A stretch of DNA of 35,320 nt from positions 1 through 35,320 of the forward strand of contig PCSG01000397.1 of NCBI GenBank assembly GCA_002772195.1, given 5' to 3'. The DNA is from Desulfobacterales bacterium CG23_combo_of_CG06-09_8_20_14_all_51_8 (GTDB lineage: Bacteria; Desulfobacterota; Desulfobacteria; Desulfobacterales; Desulfosalsimonadaceae). Position 1 is the first letter of the stretch. Every line of letters starts with the position of its first letter. The notes below the pieces were generated by a model. The model was not told where the DNA came from. It searched no databases and worked only from the letters and a program-made list of their open reading frames with translations. Positions 1 to 10,234 of this stretch are shown here, piece after piece. The position numbers and the translations under genes were made by a program.

Positions 1-715
1 ATACTGGATGCACAATGGGTTTGTGAACATCAATCATGAGAAAATGTCCAAATCCCTGGGCAATTTTCTCATGATCAAGGATATTGTCAAAACCTGCCAT
101 CCCGAAGCCATCCGCCTGTTTCTCCTGTCCCACCATTACCGGACCCCCGTGGATTTTACGGACCAGGCCCTGAAAAATACGGAATCCGGTCTGGATAAAA
201 TTTATGCGCTTTTGGAGCGATGCGAAAAATTTCTGGGAGGTTTGCCGGGCAGGGAAGGGCAGGGAACTTTGGAAGATGCGGGTCATTCCTGGAAGGCTTT
301 TTGTGAGGCCATGAACGATGATTTCAATACGGCCCAGGCTATCGGCGTCCTCTATGATAGCGTGCGGAACCTCAACAAAATTTTGGATGTTGCGGAAAAA
401 GACGATGCTGGAAACACGGACCCGGAAAAAAATCGACGGACGGTTGCCACTGAATGCCTCGGCCTCCTGAAAATGGGCGATATTCTGGACATTCTGAGCC
501 TGCCGCCCGCAGAATATTTCGCCCGGAAAAAAGAAGCCGGCCTGGAACGCCGGTCAGTGGACCCGAAAATAATCGAAGCCCTGATCCAGGAGCGGAAGGA
601 CGCCCGAAAATCAAAGGATTTCAAGCGGGCTGACGAAATCCGGGATCAGTTGAAATCCATGAATATCGAAATCGAGGACCGGCCCGAGGGGACGGTGTGG
701 AAGGTGGTGTCCTAA
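1..715 (+). CDS. cysS: Cysteine--tRNA ligase, C-terminal part (5' end lies outside the window)
   Basis: The frame is open from the window edge. '..YWMHNGFVNINHEKMSKSLGNF' carries the class-I KMSKS signature in the context typical of CysS, followed by a helical C-terminal domain. Stop TAA at 713-715. Confidence 0.92.
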   Translation, partial: YWMHNGFVNINHEKMSKSLGNFLMIKDIVKTCHPEAIRLFLLSHHYRTPVDFTDQALKNTESGLDKIYALLERCEKFLGGLPGREGQGTLEDAGHSWKAFCEAMNDDFNTAQAIGVLYDSVRNLNKILDVAEKDDAGNTDPEKNRRTVATECLGLLKMGDILDILSLPPAEYFARKKEAGLERRSVDPKIIEALIQERKDARKSKDFKRADEIRDQLKSMNIEIEDRPEGTVWKVVS

Positions 716-1020
716 ATACCCCGCGAGAGCTTTTCTTCAAACCTGACTCTCTTTTGCAACCCTGTTTCGATAGGAACTTGTTATCCGATTCGAAAAACCC
801 CAAAAATGTTTCTCATGGAGACTTATGCCGATCCGCATAAGACGCTGTGATAAACCGATGTGTAAAGCGAAAAATCTGAAATTATAGTATGTTATTGTGT
901 TAAAGGGCATGTATTCAATAGCGTATTATGCGGACAGAGAATCAAAATTCGTTCGGTGACATCTCCGGCGAATATAGAATATAGTTTTGTTCAGAAAAAT
1001 GTTTTCAAGAGGGGGCAATA

Positions 1021-1290
1021 ATGGGTATCTTAACTGGATTGTTAGAAATAATTGGAGGCTCTGTCAAGGCAGATACCATAGATAGAGTAACAAGTGCAGG
1101 ATACTATGATGGAGAACATGGCAATCCACCGCAATGGGGGATCTTCGTAAAGGCGTCGTTGATTAGCGAGGAAAAAGCTGAAATGCTCAAACAATACTAT
1201 ACAGAAGCTTATAAACTTGGGCAGCAAAAAGCAGTTAGAAAAGAAATGGGGGGGAAAGCTTCTGTATTGTTGCCTCCAGATTCTCTATAG
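1021..1290 (+). CDS. Hypothetical 89-aa protein (no recognisable domain); first ORF of the AT-rich islet
   Basis: ATG is preceded by a strong SD-like 'GAGGGGG' (1010-1016). Composition is non-repetitive. It lies in the low-GC islet, upstream of attC-like site A. Confidence 0.5.
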   Translation: MGILTGLLEIIGGSVKADTIDRVTSAGYYDGEHGNPPQWGIFVKASLISEEKAEMLKQYYTEAYKLGQQKAVRKEMGGKASVLLPPDSL

Positions 1291-1372
1291 CATAGCTAAA
1301 AGAAAAAAAATATTTTTTGGGCCAGTACATTGAAAATGTATACAATAATTCTTTCGAAGGATTTGCACCCAA

Positions 1373-1427
1373 AAATAACCGCGTGGAGTCGGACTCGCTA
1401 CGTCGGCGCTCACGCGCAGCGTTATAC
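1373..1427 (+). repeat. attC-like imperfect hairpin A (AAATAAC ... GTTATAC)
   Basis: GC-rich 55-nt element within AT-rich sequence. AAC (1377-1379) and GTT (1421-1423) sit at the ends. Stem CGCGTG (1380-1385)/CACGCG (1411-1416), AG/CT, GAC (1392-1394)/GTC (1402-1404), with bulged bases (G1386, T1389). It ends 29 nt before the TTG start of the ATPase-TIR gene. Confidence 0.4.
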
Positions 1428-1456
1428 CTTTTAAAACACTATCTGGAGGAAATGAT

Positions 1457-2986
1457 TTGTCGAATTACACTCTTGAACAAGTATTTAACGAAGCTGCATT
1501 TCCAGAGGTGACTTTTGTTGAACCGACGAATTACAACTTCATCAAAGCATCCTTTAAGACACCAGGAAAGCACTTAACTATTTCAGGACCATCAGGAACT
1601 GGGAAAACAACACTTGTAAAACACCTTCTTAGAGAACTCAATGTGCTGGAGAAAGATGTTCTCTGGATAAACGGCAGACAATATTCAAATTTCGATTCTG
1701 GAATCATGCTTCTCGCTCAGGAGTTAACTGCCTCTCCGAACTTCGATGAGCTAACGGCACTAATTCAGTTGGTTAAATTCGTAGTGATCGACGACTTCCA
1801 TTTCATTAAGAAAGGTGCGCGTCTCGAAATCTCAAAAAATCTTAAGCTTTGGCATGAAAAAGGAGTTCGTTTCATAATCATAGGAATTGCGACATCAGCA
1901 GAGGAATTATACGGGGTCGATCCAGAACTTGGAATTCGAAACGATCCATTTGAACTAAAAACACAGGACGATGCATTTTGCCGAAAACTTCTTACAAATG
2001 GCTGCAATGCCCTTAATTTCAATTTTTCTAGTTCTTTGACTGAGGAAATTGTCTCAGCATCAAACGGAGTTCCGTCAATTGTTCATGTGATCGCTCGTGT
2101 TTGTTGTATTTCTGTTGGAATTGAGCGGACTCTCGAAGAACCGATGGAGATCGATCGAAGGCTTCGAGACTTGAAGGAAGAAATACTGCGGATTTTTCAT
2201 GGAAAGTACCGCGACAAGATAGTTGGGTTGGCAAAAGGTAAACAGCAAGCACGTTCAGTTCACAACACCTATTTTGACATCGTTGCCCAAATAGCGAGCT
2301 CAGCCTCATCGGAGCTGCCAACCGAAAAGCTGTATCGATCCATTGTCGGTATTATCGAGGATTCGAAGGAACGATCGAGAAAAGCTACTTCTTTCTACAA
2401 TTGCCTTAACAACCTTAGCGATGTCATAGAACAAAAAGGGCTAAGCGACATATTGCTTTTCCGGTCGGGCAGTACCTATATCTCAATAGAAGATCCAACA
2501 TTTAGATTCTATTTGAATTTATTGGATATAGAAGACATAAAGACAAGAATTCATCTACGAACGTCTGCATACCCTTATGATGTTGCAGTCTCTTTTGCAG
2601 GTAATGATCGCCCAACGGTAAAAAGCTTTGTTGACGCTTTAAAGGATCTTGGATTAAATGTTTTCTATGATTTCGACCAACAAGCATTGCTCTGGGGTAA
2701 AGACATACGCGCAAAATTAGCTGAAGTTTATGCAAACGAAGCACAATACATGGTTATTTTCCTTTCCGAATCTTATCCTGAGCGGGATTGGACCGATTTC
2801 GAGCTATCTATCGGAAAAGAGGCTGCGGAAAAAAGAACAGAAGAATACCTCCTTCCGCTACGCTTAGACGATGTTAAGGTTGTTGGGATGAAGTCGACGA
2901 CGGGCTATATAGACCTTAGACAAACTTCCGTCCAGGAAGTGGCTGCAATTCTTGCTGATAAAATTAATGTCAGTGGAAAAGTATAA
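1457..2986 (+). CDS. P-loop (AAA+/ORC-like) ATPase fused to a C-terminal TIR domain; candidate defence/abortive-infection protein
   Basis: TTG start with GGAGG 8 nt upstream (1444-1448). Walker A GPSGTGKTT (1586-1612). Walker B-like FVVIDD (1778-1795). C-terminal 'YDVAVSFAGNDR..VFYDFD..MVIFLSESYPERDWTDFELSIG' fits the TIR pattern. The stop TAA is embedded in the attC-B R'' box. Confidence 0.85.
   Translation: MSNYTLEQVFNEAAFPEVTFVEPTNYNFIKASFKTPGKHLTISGPSGTGKTTLVKHLLRELNVLEKDVLWINGRQYSNFDSGIMLLAQELTASPNFDELTALIQLVKFVVIDDFHFIKKGARLEISKNLKLWHEKGVRFIIIGIATSAEELYGVDPELGIRNDPFELKTQDDAFCRKLLTNGCNALNFNFSSSLTEEIVSASNGVPSIVHVIARVCCISVGIERTLEEPMEIDRRLRDLKEEILRIFHGKYRDKIVGLAKGKQQARSVHNTYFDIVAQIASSASSELPTEKLYRSIVGIIEDSKERSRKATSFYNCLNNLSDVIEQKGLSDILLFRSGSTYISIEDPTFRFYLNLLDIEDIKTRIHLRTSAYPYDVAVSFAGNDRPTVKSFVDALKDLGLNVFYDFDQQALLWGKDIRAKLAEVYANEAQYMVIFLSESYPERDWTDFELSIGKEAAEKRTEEYLLPLRLDDVKVVGMKSTTGYIDLRQTSVQEVAAILADKINVSGKV
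2576..2983 (+). other. TIR domain region of the ATPase-TIR protein (residues ~374-509)
   Basis: A betaA-like 'YDVAVSF' and 'S..Y..R.W...EL' resemble the canonical 'YDVFISF ... S..Y..S.WC..EL'. Glu449 (nt 2801-2803) sits where the catalytic Glu of NADase TIRs lies. Confidence 0.7.
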
Positions 2987-3040
2987 CAATTTGCTGCACG
3001 GGAGCGCAAAAAGCCGCGCCCCGTGAGCAACCCGTTGGGC
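2981..3040 (+). repeat. attC-like imperfect hairpin B (GTATAAC ... GTTGGGC)
   Basis: R''-like GTATAAC (2981-2987) and R'-like GTTGGGC (3034-3040, fits GTTRRRY). Short unpaired spacers AAT/CCC. Long stem TTGCT(G)CACGGG(A)GCGC / GCGCCCCGTGAGCAA with two extrahelical bases (G2996, A3003). Loop AAAAAGCC (3008-3015). Confidence 0.6.
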
Positions 3041-3054
3041 GTCGAAAAGACGGT

Positions 3055-3073
3055 CGAATGTATCAGTCATTCG
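3055..3073 (-). terminator. Possible weak terminator hairpin after higA
   Basis: CGAATG (3055-3060)/CATTCG (3068-3073) with a 7-nt loop, lying 9 nt past the higA-like stop on the minus strand. A TTTT run follows only after 6 nt, so this is not a textbook intrinsic terminator. Confidence 0.25.
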
Positions 3074-3081
3074 TTCAAATT

Positions 3082-3357
3082 TTACGACAGAGAAACATGT
3101 ATTTTTCGTCCCACGGCTTTGGCAAACTTTTCGAGTGTTGAAAGACGGATATCAGTGGCATGATTTTCCATACGAGAAACAACGGATTTTGTCGTTTTTA
3201 AACTTTTTGCAATTTGTTCCTGGGTCAGACCGGTTTCAAGACGAGCTTGCTTTAGCATGAGTCCAAGTTTAAAAGTCTCAAGGCGTTCGTCATAGCCGGA
3301 CCAGAATTTGGGATCTTGTTTCGCCCGCTTTTTTTTATATTTTTGGAAATCGCTCAT
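3082..3357 (-). CDS. higA: XRE-family helix-turn-helix antitoxin (HigA-like)
   Basis: 91 aa. 'LKQARLETGLTQEQIAKSLKTTKSVVSRMEN' is a classic Cro/C1-type HTH. It overlaps the upstream toxin gene by 4 nt, in toxin-first HigBA order. Confidence 0.82.
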   Translation of the reverse strand: MSDFQKYKKKRAKQDPKFWSGYDERLETFKLGLMLKQARLETGLTQEQIAKSLKTTKSVVSRMENHATDIRLSTLEKFAKAVGRKIHVSLS

Positions 3358-3707
3358 TTTTTAGCCTTTCGGTTATAATAATCTTTTTTGCGTTTTTCAG
3401 CAGTGGCAATTTCTTTTTGAGGTATTTGTTGAGATTTTTTGGTGAAACCATGATTCAAAATCACAAGATCTTTCCCATCCCAAAAACCCAATATTCGAAA
3501 TATGTTATTGCCTTGCTGTATCCTTACTTCCCAGATATCATCAGTGCCTTGAAGTTTCTTGAAGAATTTTCGAGGTACAATATCGAGTTGTTCTATGATA
3601 TCAAGCACAAATGCGACTTTCTCAAATTGTTTGTTTGACAGCGAATCGAAATATTCTTCAACAGGGCTTTTGCCTGTTTCGAATTTATAAAATTTGATTT
3701 TTCGCAT
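3354..3707 (-). CDS. higB: RelE/HigB-superfamily toxin (phage Gp49-like/DUF891 type)
   Basis: 117 aa. 'FYKFETGKSPVEEYFDSL...WEVRIQQGNNIFRILGFWDGKDLVILNHGFTKKSQQIPQKEI' matches the Gp49/HigB-type toxin pattern. It is translationally coupled to the HTH antitoxin. Confidence 0.82.
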   Translation of the reverse strand: MRKIKFYKFETGKSPVEEYFDSLSNKQFEKVAFVLDIIEQLDIVPRKFFKKLQGTDDIWEVRIQQGNNIFRILGFWDGKDLVILNHGFTKKSQQIPQKEIATAEKRKKDYYNRKAKK

Positions 3708-3734
3708 ATTTGTATGTTCGCATATGTGCGAACA
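3701..3734. promoter_or_regulatory. Candidate higBA operator: TTCGCATAT direct repeat plus an 8-bp inverted repeat
   Basis: TTCGCATAT occurs at 3701-3709 and 3717-3725. A perfect inverted repeat TGTTCGCA (3715-3722)/TGCGAACA (3727-3734) abuts the higB start codon (3705-3707), where TA autoregulation sites usually lie. Confidence 0.45.
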
Positions 3735-3761
3735 TTTTTCAAGGGTTTATTCTGAAAAACC

Positions 3762-3819
3762 GCACAACCAGGCACTGGTGCCGACCCAAAAAGCCGGGCG
3801 CTACAGTTCACCGTTCAAA
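3762..3819 (+). repeat. attC-like imperfect hairpin C (GCACAAC ... GTTCAAA)
   Basis: AAC (3766-3768) and GTT (3813-3815). 5-nt unpaired spacers CAGGC/TCACC. Stem ACTG/CAGT then GC(C)G(A)CCC/GGGCGC. The loop AAAAAGCC (3788-3795) is identical to the loop of site B. Confidence 0.42.
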
Positions 3820-3938
3820 AACCTTACAGAGAAAGATTATACAATCGTAATAATGATATCCGGAATTCAAACCTCTCAACTCCTGACACCCGAAACCTGA
3901 CACCTTCAACCCAATTTAAAATACTCATCCAGCCTGCC

Positions 3939-5945
3939 ATGCCCCTCTTCAAAATCATCTCCGACATGACCCCCAAGGGCGACCAACCCACGGCCATTGA
4001 GGCCATCAGCCAGGGCATTCGGGAAGGCAAACCTCACCAGGTCATGCTGGGGGTGACCGGTTCCGGCAAAACCTTTACCATGGCCCATATCATTGAGAAG
4101 GTGCAAAAACCCACCCTGATTCTGGCCCCGAACAAAACCCTGGCGGCCCAGCTTTACAATGAGTTTAAGGGCCTGTTCCCGGAAAATGCGGTGGAATATT
4201 TTGTCTCCTATTATGATTATTACCAGCCGGAAGCCTATCTTCCGGTTTCGGATACTTATATTCAGAAGGATTCGTCCATCAATGAAATAATCGACAAAAT
4301 GCGGCATTCCGCCACCCGGTCGGTGTTGTCCCGGCCTGATAGCCTGGTGGTGGCCAGCGTGTCCTGCATTTACGGCCTGGGCGCGCCTGAAGATTACGTC
4401 GCCATGCGCATCGAGCTGGAAAAGGACGCGGAGTTTTCAAGGGAGGAGTTACTCTCTCGGCTTGTGGAAATCCAGTATGAACGCAATGACATGGATTTTC
4501 ACCGTGGGGCCTTCCGGGTCCGGGGAGACCGGGTGGAAATTTTTCCCGCCTATGAGGAAGACACGGCCGTGCGTGTGGAATTTTTCGGGGACGCCATTGA
4601 CGGCCTGTTTGAGATCGATCCCCTGACCGGCAATCGAAAGAAGACCCTGAACCGGGTGCTGATTTATCCGGCCAGCCATTATGTGACGCATCAGCGCACC
4701 CGGGACCGCATCATCGCGGATGTGAACGCGGAACTAAAAGACCGCGTTGATTATTTTGTTCAAAACCGAAAACTCATCGAAGCCCAGCGCATTGAGGAAA
4801 GAACCGGTTTTGATCTGGAAATGATTCAGGAAATCGGGTACTGTAACGGCATTGAAAATTACGCCCGGCACATTACCGGCCGTGCCCCGGGCGAACCGCC
4901 GCCGACCCTGCTTGATTATTTTCCGGAAGATTTTCTGGTGTTTATTGATGAAAGCCACATTGCCGTGCCCCAGATCGGTGGCATGTACAAAGGGGACCGG
5001 TCCCGCAAGGAAACTCTGGTGGAATTCGGGTTCCGCCTGCCGTCGGCCTTGGACAACCGGCCCCTGCGCTTTGATGAATTCAGCGCAAAGGTGCCCCAGG
5101 TGGTTTATGTTTCCGCGACTCCGGCGGATTATGAACTGGAAAGAAGCAAGAGCGCGGTGCATGAACTCATCGTTCGGCCCACGGGACTCATCGATCCGCT
5201 GATCGAATTCCGGGACGCCAAGCGGCAGGTGGATGATCTGTATGATGAAATTCAGCTTCGCATCCAGAAAAAGGAACGGGTTCTGGTCACCACCCTGACC
5301 AAGCGCATGGCCGAAGATTTGACGGATTATTACACGGACCTGGGGATTGCGGTCAAATACCTGCATTCGGATATAAAGACCCTGGAGCGCCTTGAAATTA
5401 TACAAGAACTGCGCACCGGTGCGTTTGATGTGCTGATCGGCATCAACCTCCTGCGGGAAGGGCTGGACATTCCGGAAGTGTCCCTGGTGGCGATTCTGGA
5501 CGCGGATAAGGAAGGGTTTCTTCGCTCGGCCCGCTCCCTGATTCAGACCTGCGGCCGGGCCGCGCGGAATTTGAACGGCAAGGTGCTGATGTATGGCGAA
5601 ACCATAACGAAGTCCATGCAGAACGCTTATGATGAAACCATGCGCCGGCGGAAAATTCAGACCCAGTACAACCAGGATCATGGAATAACACCCGCGACAA
5701 TCATCAAAGAAATCTCCGGAGCGCTTTTGTCGCGGTTTTATCCCGCATCCGATGGACAGGCCGCCATGGAAGTGAACGAATCCATCGCTACCTATGCGTC
5801 CTATGAGAACATAGAGAAGCAGATTGCTTCTCTGGAGAAACAAATGAATGCCGCAGCCAAGGAGCTGGCGTTTGAACGAGCAGCGGAAATCCGGGACCGG
5901 ATCATTGCGTTAAAAAAATTGCAGGTTCTGGACTTTGAAACGTAG
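3939..5945 (+). CDS. uvrB: Excinuclease ABC subunit B
   Basis: 668 aa. '[12 protein letters not shown]', Walker A '[10 protein letters not shown]', helicase motifs, '[10 protein letters not shown]', and a C-terminal UVR motif '[11 protein letters not shown]'. Confidence 0.97.
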
Positions 5946-5952
5946 GCGAGCT

Positions 5953-7776
5953 ATGGAAAACACTCTTGCCCTTCAACTGCCATCCATTTCATCCGGTCCC
6001 GGCGTTTATCTAATGAAGGATGACCGGGGCAAAATAATCTATGTGGGCAAGGCGGCCAATTTAAAAAAACGTCTGGCATCCTATTTTATCAAGCAGACCC
6101 ACCCGGATTTAAAAACCGGTGTATTGGTAAAGCAAATCACCTCCTTTGATACCATTGTCACCCCGTCGGAAAACGAAGCGTTAATTCTCGAATCCACCCT
6201 CATTAAAAAGCACAAGCCGCGATACAATATTCTTTTAAAGGACGACAAGCGGTATCCGTCCATCCGCATTGACCTGACCAGCGACTATCCCTGCCTGCAG
6301 GTCGTCCGGAAAACCGGAAATGACCGTGCCCTGTATTTCGGCCCTTATACCTCGCCGGGCTCGGTCCGGGACACCATCAAAATCATCAATAAAACCTTTA
6401 AACTGCGCAAATGCCAGTCCGACCGGGTCAAGCCCCGGTCCCGGCCATGCCTGAATTATCAGATGGGACTTTGTCTTGCGCCCTGCTGTTATCCGGTGGA
6501 CCAACAGGCATATCGGGAAATGGTGGACGAGGTCCGGATGTTTTTAAACGGCCGGACCCATGACCTGATCCGGAAATTCACCGCTGAAATGACGGTGGCG
6601 GCCGAACGGCAAGCGTTTGAACAAGCGGCAAGGCTGCGGGATAAAATTTTCGCCCTTCAAAACACCGTGGAAAAACAGATTGCAGTCACCCCGGATTTCG
6701 TCGACCGGGATGTCATCGCTTTTGTCCGAAATGACATGATGGCCGTTGTGGTGGTGCTCCTGGTGCGGAACGGATTTTTGCAGGCCGTGCGCCAGTTCGT
6801 TTTCAAGGATGCGATTTCATCGGACCATGAGATTGTGGATGCTTTTATAAAGCAGTATTATGCAAAATCCGATTATATCCCCAAAGAAATCATTGTACCG
6901 CTGCATCTTGAGGATACGCCTGTCTATGCCGGGTGGCTTTCGGACATCAAGGGATCGGCGGTTCATATCATTCTACCGAAGCGCGGGGACAAATTGCGTC
7001 TGTTGACCATGGCCGAAGATAATGCCCGAACCCGGCTCACCCGCATGATGGATGAAATGGCTGCAGGAGCAGAACTGCTTGCGGGTTTGGCGCGGAGGCT
7101 GCAATTAAAGGCTCCGCCTCGGCGCATTGAGTGTTTTGACAATTCCGGCATGTCGGGCAGTAATCTGGTGTCCGCAAGGGTGGTGTTCGTCGATGGCCGG
7201 CCGGAGAAAAAAAGTTATCGGAAGTACACGATCAAAACCGTTGACCTTCAGGATGATTACGCGTCCATGAATGAAGTGCTGGAGCGGCGCTTTAAAAAGA
7301 GCAACCAGGATTCTGATCTTCCGGATCTCTTGATGGTGGATGGGGGCAGGGGGCAGTTGAATATCGCAATATCGGTGATCGAACGGCTGGGCCTGAAGGG
7401 CGCCTTTACCATTATCGGCATTGCCAAAAAAGATGTGGACCGGAATGAGCCAACGGATAAAATCTATTTGCCCGGACGGGTCAATCCCGTGAATTTCGGC
7501 AACGACATGGACGCGCTGTTTTTGCTTCAGCGCATCCGGGATGAGGCCCACCGGTTCGCCATTGCATTCCACCGGCAAAAACGCGGAAAAACCGCCCTGC
7601 ACTCGGCTCTCGACGCCATCCCCGGCATCGGCAAACGGCGCAAAGCGGCTTTGATGAAAAAATTCAAGAGGTTTCAGCGGTTGCGGGAGGCGTCGGTGGA
7701 AGAGCTGGCCGGAACCCCCGGCATCAGTTCGGATTTGGCCCGGACACTTTTTACCGCATTGAACAAAGCCCCATGA
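5953..7776 (+). CDS. uvrC: Excinuclease ABC subunit C
   Basis: GIY-YIG N-terminus 'GVYLMKDDRGKIIYVGKAANLKKR', UVR motif 'FEQAARLRDKI', and a C-terminal endonuclease plus (HhH)2 'IPGIGKRRKAAL'. ATG 5953 is preferred over the TTG at 5935 that overlaps the uvrB stop. Confidence 0.95.
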   Translation: MENTLALQLPSISSGPGVYLMKDDRGKIIYVGKAANLKKRLASYFIKQTHPDLKTGVLVKQITSFDTIVTPSENEALILESTLIKKHKPRYNILLKDDKRYPSIRIDLTSDYPCLQVVRKTGNDRALYFGPYTSPGSVRDTIKIINKTFKLRKCQSDRVKPRSRPCLNYQMGLCLAPCCYPVDQQAYREMVDEVRMFLNGRTHDLIRKFTAEMTVAAERQAFEQAARLRDKIFALQNTVEKQIAVTPDFVDRDVIAFVRNDMMAVVVVLLVRNGFLQAVRQFVFKDAISSDHEIVDAFIKQYYAKSDYIPKEIIVPLHLEDTPVYAGWLSDIKGSAVHIILPKRGDKLRLLTMAEDNARTRLTRMMDEMAAGAELLAGLARRLQLKAPPRRIECFDNSGMSGSNLVSARVVFVDGRPEKKSYRKYTIKTVDLQDDYASMNEVLERRFKKSNQDSDLPDLLMVDGGRGQLNIAISVIERLGLKGAFTIIGIAKKDVDRNEPTDKIYLPGRVNPVNFGNDMDALFLLQRIRDEAHRFAIAFHRQKRGKTALHSALDAIPGIGKRRKAALMKKFKRFQRLREASVEELAGTPGISSDLARTLFTALNKAP

Positions 7777-7911
7777 CGGCTTCAATAGAAATAAAATTTC
7801 AATTTTTTGAGAAATTTATTGTTTTGTTTTTCTCGCAGAGACGCTGGGTCCGCGGAGGGAGATGCCTTTAATGGTCTTATTCTCTGCGCCCCTGCGCGAC
7901 GATCTTTCATG

Positions 7912-8925
<1,014 letters not shown>

Positions 8926-9168
8926 TTATATGTTGATTCATGTCAATATATAAAATAATTTAAATTTAACTGCTTGTTATTTTAACTATAAAATATTTCA
9001 ATCAAATTGTAAGTTTTGCTTACTTTTTTAAAATTGTGCGGAAACCTGGACCATTGCTTCAGATTGCGAGCGAACTGGTGTCCGGATGCCGTCCTCCCAA
9101 GAATATTGGTACCGCGTGATAATTTCTTTGAAAACCGCTTAAAATTCAGGCAGATTTTAACACCTTTC

Positions 9169-9197
9169 TTGACAACAGGGATGATTGTCGGTATCAA
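9169..9197 (+). promoter_or_regulatory. Sigma70-like promoter candidate (TTGACA-17 nt-TATCAA)
   Basis: TTGACA 9169-9174, a 17-nt spacer, and TATCAA 9192-9197, in the 511-bp AT-rich intergenic region upstream of the histidine kinase gene. Motif match only. Confidence 0.3.
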
Positions 9198-9355
9198 AAT
9201 AATGCCTGCTTTGACAACCGCATTTGTTTGGCGGGTCGTTTTTCTCTCATTTTTTTTCAACCAGGATATGACCTTTTTTCGTTAAATTATGCTAATATAT
9301 GGAAAATTTCATTGATGAAATCAACCCCTGCGAACAGATCGGATAACCCCTTCCG

Positions 9356-10234
9356 ATGGATTTTGAATTCATGCCTGATCAGATCAATAAACAGAAAGAT
9401 GCTTTGACGGATGCCTGCTGTCAAGGGGCACTGGAAAAAGAAATCCATAAAACAATCGAATCCGGCCCTCTGACGGGAAGACCAGCCCGATCCGGCAAAA
9501 TGGAAGCTCTGGAAGTGGTCGCCAGTGGCGTTGCCCATGATTTGAACAATATCCTTTCAGGAATTGTCACCTATCCTGAGCTGCTGCTCATGAGAAAAGA
9601 TCTTGATGAGAAAACCCGCAAGGCCCTGAAGGTTATTCGGGACTCAGGCGAGCGGGCCGCCGCGTTGATCGGAGATCTGACCACCATCGCCAGAAACAAT
9701 GCTTCCAATCGGGAAGAGATCAGCATCAACAGTATGGTTCAGGAATATTTACAGTCTCCGGACTACCGCAAGCTGCAACTGTCCCAGGACGGTATCGCTC
9801 TCAAATTAAATCTTGATTCCCGTTTGTTTACTATTGATGCCTCCCGCCTTCATATTCGACGAAGCGTCATGCATCTGGTGGCAAACGCCGCGGAAGCCAT
9901 CGGATCAAACGGACAGATCCTTATTTCAACTGCTAATTGTTTGCTGGGCGTGCCTTTAAGGCCCTATTCGGAAGTAAAAAAAGGTGAATACGCGCTTTTA
10001 ACCGTTGCTCATACCGGCGGTATTTCAGAGCAGCATATCGACCGGATTTTTGAACCCTTCTATACCCGAAAAGTGATGGGTAGAAAAGGCACGGGTCTGG
10101 AATTAACGGTTGTATGGTATACGGCTGCCGACCATAACGGCTATGCCGTTGTGACAGGCGATACGACATCCACCCGGTTTGACCTTTATTTTCCCAGGAC
10201 CCGCCATCTGGCCCGGGAACAGGGGTGCGAATAA
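9356..10234 (+). CDS. Soluble sensor histidine kinase (HisKA + HATPase_c, no obvious sensor domain or adjacent response regulator)
   Basis: H-box 'VASGVAHDLNNILSGI', N-box 'LVANAAEAI', G-box 'GTGLELTVV'. No TM segment. The exact start is uncertain. Confidence 0.85.
   Translation: MDFEFMPDQINKQKDALTDACCQGALEKEIHKTIESGPLTGRPARSGKMEALEVVASGVAHDLNNILSGIVTYPELLLMRKDLDEKTRKALKVIRDSGERAAALIGDLTTIARNNASNREEISINSMVQEYLQSPDYRKLQLSQDGIALKLNLDSRLFTIDASRLHIRRSVMHLVANAAEAIGSNGQILISTANCLLGVPLRPYSEVKKGEYALLTVAHTGGISEQHIDRIFEPFYTRKVMGRKGTGLELTVVWYTAADHNGYAVVTGDTTSTRFDLYFPRTRHLAREQGCE

Follow-up and report, generated by a model that had tools for sequence, protein, structure and literature searches.

A probable three-cassette integron array without a nearby integrase, carrying an ATPase-TIR gene and higBA, between cysS and uvrB

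The contig PCSG01000397.1 contains a 3.2-kb insert between cysS and uvrB, two housekeeping genes that normally adjoin each other, and the question that this locus raises is what kind of element the insert represents and how it came to reside there. Below, the stretch of 35,320 nucleotides (nt) that was analysed is called the window, the insert is called the island, and labels consisting of L and a number denote the metagenome contigs and genome loci that were compared with it. We conclude that the island is very probably an array of three integron cassettes without a nearby integrase, that is, a group of clustered attC sites without an integron integrase (CALIN), an already known kind of element. 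It encompasses four genes, namely, an open reading frame (ORF) of 89 amino acids (aa), a gene for a protein that combines an ATPase with a TIR domain (ATPase-TIR), and higA-like and higB-like genes, along with three elements, A, B and C, that are considered here as attC sites (Table 1).

An attC site consists of an imperfect palindrome of 57-141 nt that is bracketed by an R'' box (..AAC) and an R' box (GTT..). The bottom strand of the site folds into a hairpin, and the integron integrase IntI, a tyrosine recombinase, recognizes the bulges together with the AAC/GTT box and cuts between the G and the TT of the right box (G/TT, with the slash denoting the cut). In canonical attC sites, the extrahelical bases are located on the 5' arm of the top strand, which corresponds to the 3' arm of the recombined bottom strand.

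Table 1. Features of the island and its chromosomal flanks (window coordinates)
Feature	Coordinates	Strand	Basis
cysS, 3' part (left chromosomal flank)	8..715	+	ORF; tRNA-synt_1e/DALR_2/CysS_C annotation
Non-coding left part of the island	716..1020		inverted repeat 832-846/920-934; promoter-like site 956-985 (+)
89-aa ORF, gene of cassette 1	1021..1290	+	homologues beside attC elsewhere
Site A, attC of cassette 1, weak and probably decayed	1370..1427	+	R2 score, position, box complementarity
Cassette 2 (1613 nt): TTATAC...ATPase-TIR...attC B...G	1422..3034	+	L145 homology; L146/L149 homologues
ATPase-TIR gene, 509 aa	1457..2986	+	AAA_22 N-terminal, TIR_2 C-terminal
Site B, canonical attC, 60 nt	2981..3040	+	R1/R2 scores, fold, covarying family
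Cassette 3 (779 nt): TTGGGC...higA, higB inverted...attC C...G	3035..3813	+	L160 homology; box complementarity
higA-like antitoxin, 91 aa	3082..3357	-	Pfam HTH_3 2e-10
higB-like toxin, 117 aa, Gp49/DUF891	3354..3707	-	Pfam Gp49 4.6e-21
Palindrome ATGTTCGCA-tatg-TGCGAACAT upstream of higB	3714..3735		kept in the L160 copy
Site C, attC of cassette 3, last of the array	3762..3819	+	R1/R2 scores
uvrB (right chromosomal flank)	3939..5945	+	ORF, annotation, relatives

The attC family of site B

The key evidence comes from site B. Its boxes are R'' GTATAAC (2981-2987) and R' GTTGGGC (3034-3040), with the crossover at G/TTGGGC, and the hairpin between them has 3-nt spacers and a 15-bp stem that reads, in order, 5 bp, a bulged G (G2996), 6 bp, a bulged A (A3003), 4 bp and an 8-nt loop, both bulges being located on the 5' arm. 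Folded as DNA and compared with shuffled sequences, site B yields z-scores of -3.1 on the plus strand and -3.8 on the minus strand.

The 22-mer GGAGCGCAAAAAGCCGCGCCCC from site B is found in 39 metagenome contigs, only one of which (L110) represents the window's own locus. In the aligned contigs, a conserved block is bounded exactly by AAC and GTT and is surrounded by unrelated flanks. The mean column identity among 32 sequences of this family is 86%, and variation is confined to the outer box positions, which remain within RYYYAAC/GTTRRRY-like limits, and to some of the stem pairs. A covariation test with a hand-drawn structure and 32 distinct copies showed that 96% of the cells are paired and detected 28 double-sided changes, whereas shuffles gave 4.7 and sliding the partner columns gave no more than 6; both bulges are kept across the family while the stem pairs covary. 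In the plus orientation, new ORFs with ribosome-binding sites begin 15-35 nt past the GTT of these sites, and three pairs of contigs (L122/L137, L115/L141 and L116/L120) share the left flank and the attC but diverge immediately after GTT. Such divergence after G/TT is the classical sign of cassette exchange, here recognized by sequence comparison.

The same contigs carry additional, weaker matches to a covariance model built from the copies of the B family (R1), all on the same strand and 0.3-1.5 kb apart; L115 and L125 have six such matches each, L129 has five and L111 has four. Moreover, an integron integrase (330 aa) is encoded divergently from the array in L125 (also in L117 and L134) and in L121. 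These two IntI sequences, which are 47% identical to each other, score 436 and 442 bits against the NCBIfam model TIGR02249 'integron integrase', for which the cutoff is 265. In L125, intI occupies positions 2182-3174 on the minus strand and is accompanied by attC matches at 4356, 5715 (the B family member), 7182, 9669, 10378 and 14629 on the plus strand; in L121, intI is located at 3563-4552 on the plus strand, with attC matches at 2577 and 1375 on the minus strand. Taken together, these features identify site B as a predicted attC site of a family used by integron integrases.

In one contig (L111, positions 7438-9403), an array of the B family adjoins a gene for a XerC/XerD-like tyrosine recombinase that scores below the integron-integrase cutoff, and an adjacent 366-aa ORF resembles an IS91-family transposase, judging by its N-terminal sequence alone.

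Hairpins at gene ends can also be repetitive extragenic palindromic (REP)-like repeats or transcription terminators, in which case the AAC and GTT ends would be coincidental; the initial annotation had itself raised this possibility. In its favour, the ATPase-TIR and higA genes converge on B, a position where a terminator is to be expected, the hairpin of B is rich in GC, and a terminator scan picks small pieces of A and B. Nevertheless, this explanation is effectively refuted: neither the rest of the 35-kb window nor 1.17 Mb of control DNA contains a further copy of the element, the full stems are not followed by a T-run, the count of terminator-like signals does not exceed that in shuffled sequence, and the family is bounded by AAC and GTT, retains its bulges, forms co-oriented arrays beside IntI and exchanges cassettes at G/TT.

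Sites C and A and the cassette junctions

Three elements with AAC...GTT ends had been noticed in the island by the initial annotation, and all three are located where it placed them. Site C has the boxes R'' GCACAAC (3762-3768) and R' GTTCAAA (3813-3819), with the predicted crossover at G/TTCAAA and a weak stem. The identity of the loops of B and C, also noticed previously, is borne out, the loop AAAAAGCC being found at 3008 and 3788, and the 10-mer CAAAAAGCCG occurs in the whole 35 kb only at these two sites. The boxes of site A are AAATAAC (1373-1379) and GTTATAC (1421-1427), the latter forming the junction with cassette 2. On the plus strand, B and C are 781 nt apart, and A is located 1611 nt upstream of B.

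Two covariance models were applied to the window, R1 and a second model, R2, that was rebuilt from 50 matches including diverse attC sites of arrays. With R1, site B scores 82.4 bits and site C 22.5 bits (E 2e-4), and no other match below E = 1 is detected in the 35-kb window; with R2, B scores 79.2 bits and C 40.3 bits (E 1.9e-10, on the plus strand only). The E-value of B is ~1e-23. R2 run with default filters has no match at E<=10 in the 1.17 Mb of control DNA, which is chromosomal and unrelated. A search against Rfam gave no match at gathering thresholds in the whole window nor at E<=10 in 700-4000, which is uninformative, the inclusion of an attC model in Rfam being unconfirmed.

In one control locus, the uvrB neighbourhood of a Syntrophobacteraceae metagenome-assembled genome (MAG; L032), R2 with the filters off yields two 18-bit matches on the minus strand (3271-3363 and 6005-6094), 2.7 kb apart, which may represent another small attC cluster instead of noise.

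The boxes also bear on how the cassettes are joined. Within an array, the TTRRRY after the G of an attC is already part of the next cassette, so that it should be complementary to that cassette's own R''. In the metagenome arrays, the four outer variable positions of R' are all complementary to those of the next R'' in 12 of the 27 consecutive pairs, and the failures are 1-nt register shifts or skipped sites; among unrelated attC pairs, a 4/4 match is found in 2% and a match at three or more of the four positions in 11.7%. In the window, GTTATAC of A is the exact reverse complement of GTATAAC of B (7/7 positions; outer 4/4), and GTTGGGC of B is complementary to GCACAAC of C at 6/7 positions (outer 3/4). 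The cassette junctions of the window carry the signature predicted for cassettes that pass through a circle.

The cassettes and their genes

The ATPase-TIR gene of cassette 2 starts with TTG at 1457, preceded by GGAGG 8 nt upstream, and its TAA stop (2984-2986) lies inside the left box of site B; the initial annotation had correctly described an ORF that begins 29 nt after A and ends within the box of B. The domain assignments are supported by Pfam matches to TIR_2 (2.5e-15) and AAA_22 (4.4e-8). In PADLOC, the protein matches the candidate families PDC-S59 (2.7e-19) and PDC-S66 (7e-15) and, weakly, the ThsB-like TIR (2.3e-7). There is no ThsA-like gene in the island, so that ATPase-TIR is not a Thoeris system; it is probably a single-gene, abortive infection-type defence and a candidate anti-phage effector. 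We detected 333 homologues at E<=1e-10 across several phyla, with sources that include Marinobacter, Microbulbifer, Pseudoxanthomonas, Stenotrophomonas, Geomonas, a cyanobacterium, Cytobacillus and Brocadiaceae.

Homologues of this gene are found within arrays elsewhere. A 90%-identical copy in L145 resides between R2 attC matches in a different chromosomal context, and the nucleotide similarity between the two loci (window 1420-3020 and L145 7964-9564, 85.5% identity) begins at GTTATAC; the attC sites upstream of this point are unrelated, and GTTATAC follows in both. The copy thus begins on the GTT triplet of the left junction, in agreement with the earlier proposal that the TIR gene moves between genomes as a cassette. 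The R'' box GTATAAC is common to the window, L145 and L146, and copies of 85% (L146-L148) and 73% identity (L149, an array of five attC sites) are likewise bracketed by attC matches. In L150, which carries a homologue from Pseudoxanthomonas, R2 finds no attC match, so that this copy either is not a cassette or is associated with an attC type that is invisible to the family-biased R2.

TIR proteins of other cassettes were also encountered. In L139 (1895-2377), a protein with a TIR domain is encoded by the cassette that adjoins a B-family attC, and L111 (3311-4075) probably carries a TIR cassette as well, as suggested solely by an N-terminal KVFISYSHDS motif, next to an attC that is related to the B family but does not belong to it.

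Cassette 3 contains the higBA pair on the minus strand. The 3' end of higB overlaps the start of higA by 4 nt, and just 5' of higB there is a 9-nt inverted repeat (3714-3722/3727-3735) that forms the arms of the palindrome in Table 1 and is probably the autoregulatory operator of higBA; the reverse orientation of the pair and its own palindromic promoter region had already been recognized in the initial annotation. With the toxin gene upstream, the overlap and the palindrome, the pair is classified by its gene arrangement as a predicted type II toxin-antitoxin (TA) system of the HigBA kind. HigB has 755 homologues at E<=1e-20, with identities of 74-93% among the 120 matches listed, and a higBA copy in L160 is 91.5% identical at the nucleotide level over window 3033-3768 in a different context.

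In L014 (6266-6547, corresponding to window ~3357-3638), an 8.3-kb contig that is 99.95% identical to the window, higA is called and higB is not, a 69-aa ORF on the opposite strand being called instead, as would be expected if the toxin gene of that subpopulation carried a frameshift or a point mutation.

The 89-aa protein of cassette 1 has no match in Pfam or PADLOC. Its homologues in L153, L154 and L159 (76-78% identity) are followed by a 50.7-bit attC 72 nt past the stop codon, in L153 as part of a co-oriented array of three attC sites. Site A is located 80 nt past the stop codon of the 89-aa ORF, the place equivalent to that of the L153 attC, and no homology to these cassette copies is found upstream of 1020. 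From the stop codon to R', the window and L153 align weakly (score 51.5 versus a maximum of 47 in 300 shuffles); aligned alone, site A and the L153 attC show no significant similarity (38 of 500 shuffles score as high).

The next cassettes in L153 (519-2949) encode a 537-aa protein without a Pfam match and a protein with NERD and Zn-ribbon domains, each followed by an attC; these may be further defence-type cassettes.

Several observations weigh against the interpretation of the island as an integron array. In place of the IntegronFinder attC model, we used the home-made models R1 and R2, which are biased toward one attC family. The claim that each of the three elements folds into an imperfect stem holds for B, but not for A and C, which fold no better than shuffles (z ~0 to +0.7; for C, +0.3 to +0.7); the E-value of 1.9e-10 for C comes from a model that weighs structure and sequence jointly. 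Similarly, the covariance search that had been suggested along with that claim yields significant scores for B and C, but for A only 12.7 bits at 1370-1427 on the plus strand (E 0.26), which is not significant by itself; this is the best match after B and C, only slightly above noise at 10.3 bits. With the filters off, three R2 matches in 90 kb of control DNA reach 12.7 bits or more, so that the score of A is at noise level genome-wide. The same filters-off control gives an estimate of ~0.003 for the chance that a match with the score of A falls, on the correct strand, into the 165-nt gap that separates the two ORFs. We regard site A as probably a weak, decayed attC because its position, the complementarity of its box with that of B and the homology boundary coincide. 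At the left end of the array, in 716-1020, no recognizable junction is found, and the promoter scan performs no better than on shuffled sequence. Present-day mobility of the cassettes is unproven, the integrase search being limited to the DNA specified in the next section.

The remaining points of this kind are breakpoints that differ from G/TT. In L012, a population variant of the locus (1259 nt; 1141-1259), uvrB, attC C, higBA and attC B are kept, and the DNA to the left of the AAC of B is unrelated (junction 2984/2985); there, an open frame ends at TAG just before a TGCCAAC box, so that a different cassette precedes higBA, and the break is at the left AAC of B rather than at G/TT. The homology to L160 (6880-7760) starts at G/TT of B and breaks at the left AAC of C, and the attC cores differ on both sides of higBA. 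Finally, the attC of L145 (9525-9584) is a hybrid, in which the left arm and the loop are B-like, the right arm is foreign and unable to pair with the left one, and the break lies within the loop; this blurs the right end of cassette 2 in the comparison with L145. Possible causes of such breaks are homologous exchange between near-identical cores, independent genesis of cassettes, or action of the integrase on the top strand. It is conceivable, although we consider it unlikely, that the locus departs from what is known in one of two ways, namely, that top-strand or second-strand cleavage by the integrase reassorts genes and attC sites outside the canonical G/TT-only model, or that the P-loop-TIR protein is an uncharacterised single-protein anti-phage system that spreads from phylum to phylum chiefly in the form of an integron cassette.

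Read on the minus strand, the break in L012 falls at the left GTT of B, which suggested an array on that strand with higBA in the forward orientation. This alternative was rejected because B has its bulges on the plus-strand 5' arm, the ORFs of the family start after the plus-strand GTT, and C is matched only on the plus strand.

Insertion between cysS and uvrB

The GC content of the island (716-3938) is 0.41, compared with 0.51 in cysS and 0.54 in uvrB, which agrees with the earlier remark that the region is richer in AT than the two flanking genes. In seven related loci, cysS is located immediately 5' of uvrB, with gaps of 0-100 nt overall (~1-11 nt in L027, L028 and L036, and ~100 nt in L026), and none of the island proteins was found in these seven loci. 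The proposal that the array is inserted between cysS and uvrB, and the comparison with relatives that had been recommended for it, are therefore borne out: the adjacency of the two genes is ancestral, and the island is an insertion. This empty-site comparison involves distant relatives only because the nearest UvrB in a scan of species-representative genomes is 71% identical; the top matches come from Thermodesulfobacteriota and Desulfobacteraceae MAGs.

An integrase gene was sought by tblastn with two IntI queries in the 35-kb window and ~22 kb of the 46.8-kb source contig, the island included, and no match better than E 2.6 was obtained, in line with the initial annotation for the window; this absence applies to the DNA searched and not to the whole genome. 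Neither R1 nor R2 finds an attC match in 716-1020. Under the scenario that we favour, the array would have arisen by integrase-mediated insertion of a cassette at a secondary (attG-type) site, probably followed by additions through attC x attC recombination. There is experimental proof of insertion at such secondary sites, and it has been put forward as one source of small CALINs (bioRxiv 10.1101/2022.09.11.507474).

A different route to the same array is the decay of a complete integron, with intI, attI and cassettes, from which the integrase was deleted. Loss of intI is one of the listed routes to CALINs (Cury et al. 2016, PMC4889954), the 305 nt of non-coding DNA at 716-1020 could be a leftover of attI and the Pc promoter, and an insertion sequence (IS)-like element has been active in the population. 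Against this, neither the window nor the ~22 kb of the source contig searched by tblastn contains a remnant of an integrase, and given the gap of 0-100 nt in the relatives, this route requires the entry of an entire integron followed by its clean trimming; furthermore, 95% of CALINs lack intI pseudogenes (PMC4889954), whereas attG insertion has experimental support (bioRxiv 10.1101/2022.09.11.507474). We prefer the attG origin because the ancestral junction is tight and no intI remnant is found in the DNA searched, and consider the decay of a complete integron rather unlikely.

Given that IntI cuts at G/TT, IntI provided in trans could excise the cassettes as circles and reinsert them elsewhere, and by analogy with other attC sites, the cassettes of the window would remain substrates for such an enzyme. 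Without a Pc promoter, higBA would be expressed from its own palindromic promoter, probably stabilizing the array, and transcription of the 89-aa and ATPase-TIR genes would have to start from a promoter in 716-1020. Within this region, a 15-nt inverted repeat (832-846 TCCGCATAAGACGCT and 920-934 AGCGTATTATGCGGA), with arms that are 93% complementary and 73 nt apart, is located just 5' of the promoter-like site 956-985 on the plus strand and of the 89-aa ORF.

Comparison with the known kinds of cassette arrays places the island among CALINs, 83% of which have fewer than six attC sites (PMC4889954; IntegronFinder 2, PMC9024848). Like these, the window has co-oriented attC sites (two significant and one weak) 0.8-1.6 kb apart, with no intI nearby, in a small array of non-resistance cassettes, and nothing essential differs; its peculiarities are that it is located between two housekeeping genes that are normally tightly joined, in an uncultured Thermodesulfobacteriota-like organism, and that one attC (A) is probably decayed. 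The B family resembles the species- or clade-specific attC families of sedentary chromosomal integrons (for example, the Vibrio cholerae repeats; attC taxonomy of Ghaly et al. 2021, PMC8352920) in that a near-invariant core accompanies many cassettes across many samples, but the integrases found with it number at least two, with an identity of only 47%, and it is found here in a small integrase-less array, not a large one. The cassettes also resemble those inserted at attG sites, including single attC sites lacking integron-integrases (SALINs; bioRxiv 10.1101/2022.09.11.507474), in residing outside an integron platform, beside core genes, but there are three cassettes rather than one, and the initial insertion junction is not located in 716-1020.

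With regard to gene content, integron cassettes that encode compact defence systems have been reported recently (bioRxiv 10.1101/2024.07.02.601719, 10.1101/2024.07.02.601686), and the window likewise carries a compact single-gene candidate, a P-loop ATPase with TIR, other TIR cassettes being present in L139 and probably L111; in contrast to the reported systems, ATPase-TIR is known from sequence alone, with only the PADLOC candidate families and the ThsB-like TIR as its matches. TA cassettes with their own promoters are known in chromosomal integrons (Richard et al. 2024, PMC13108822); higBA similarly appears to be a type II pair with the toxin first and its own promoter/operator, but it resides in a three-cassette, integrase-less array, in which it would play a role in limiting cassette loss.

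The locus provides a clean example of cassettes settling in a core housekeeping junction, away from an integrase, in an uncultured, sulfate reducer-like lineage. It also documents a near-invariant attC family that is common to many metagenomes from sediment and groundwater and to two or more lineages of integrases, and shows that an ATPase-TIR gene family with at least 333 homologues travels as a cassette, which adds a candidate to the compact anti-phage cassettes. The understanding of integrons is unchanged by these findings; only the breakpoints at the left AAC and the hybrid attC might alter it. The interest of the locus is modest, the kind of element being already known; what stands out is mostly the family of ATPase-TIR cassettes, along with the breakpoints that are not canonical.

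The variation of the locus in the population bears on one more explanation, namely, that the island arrived as one block, either carried by another mobile element (an IS or a composite transposon) or taken up by transformation and integrated by homologous recombination, with the attC sites as passive relics of an array assembled in a different genome. About 35 metagenome contigs carry the same locus at 99.8-100% identity. Two subpopulation contigs, L006 (3157-3290) and L025 (637-689), contain the same foreign end, GTGCCTGACAGAAAACCCCGGATTTTTTCTCGGCCGGGCAAAAAATTT..., with a subterminal hairpin, following TATTTA in opposite orientations; the junctions are at window positions 711/712, at the cysS stop codon, and 1487/1488, at about codon 11 of the ATPase-TIR gene, which insertion there would inactivate. 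The foreign end looks like that of a target-specific IS (IS200/IS605-like or IS5-like), but no transposase was seen. Delivery as a block is consistent with these insertions at two places of the island in different subpopulations, with the GC content of the island (0.41 compared with ~0.53 in the host), and with the reported shuffling of cassettes in chromosomal integrons by natural transformation (PMC12614218). However, no inverted or direct repeats are found at the ends of the island and no transposase among its ORFs, the IS-like junctions are internal polymorphisms rather than borders of the island, and the three cassettes occur separately in other arrays, with only one of them swapped in L012, which argues for cassette-by-cassette dynamics. 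Arrival as one block accordingly appears quite improbable. L006 was initially a candidate for another chromosomal context of the island and was rejected as such because L006 and L025 carry the same foreign end at two places in opposite orientations, that is, an IS-like insertion polymorphism.

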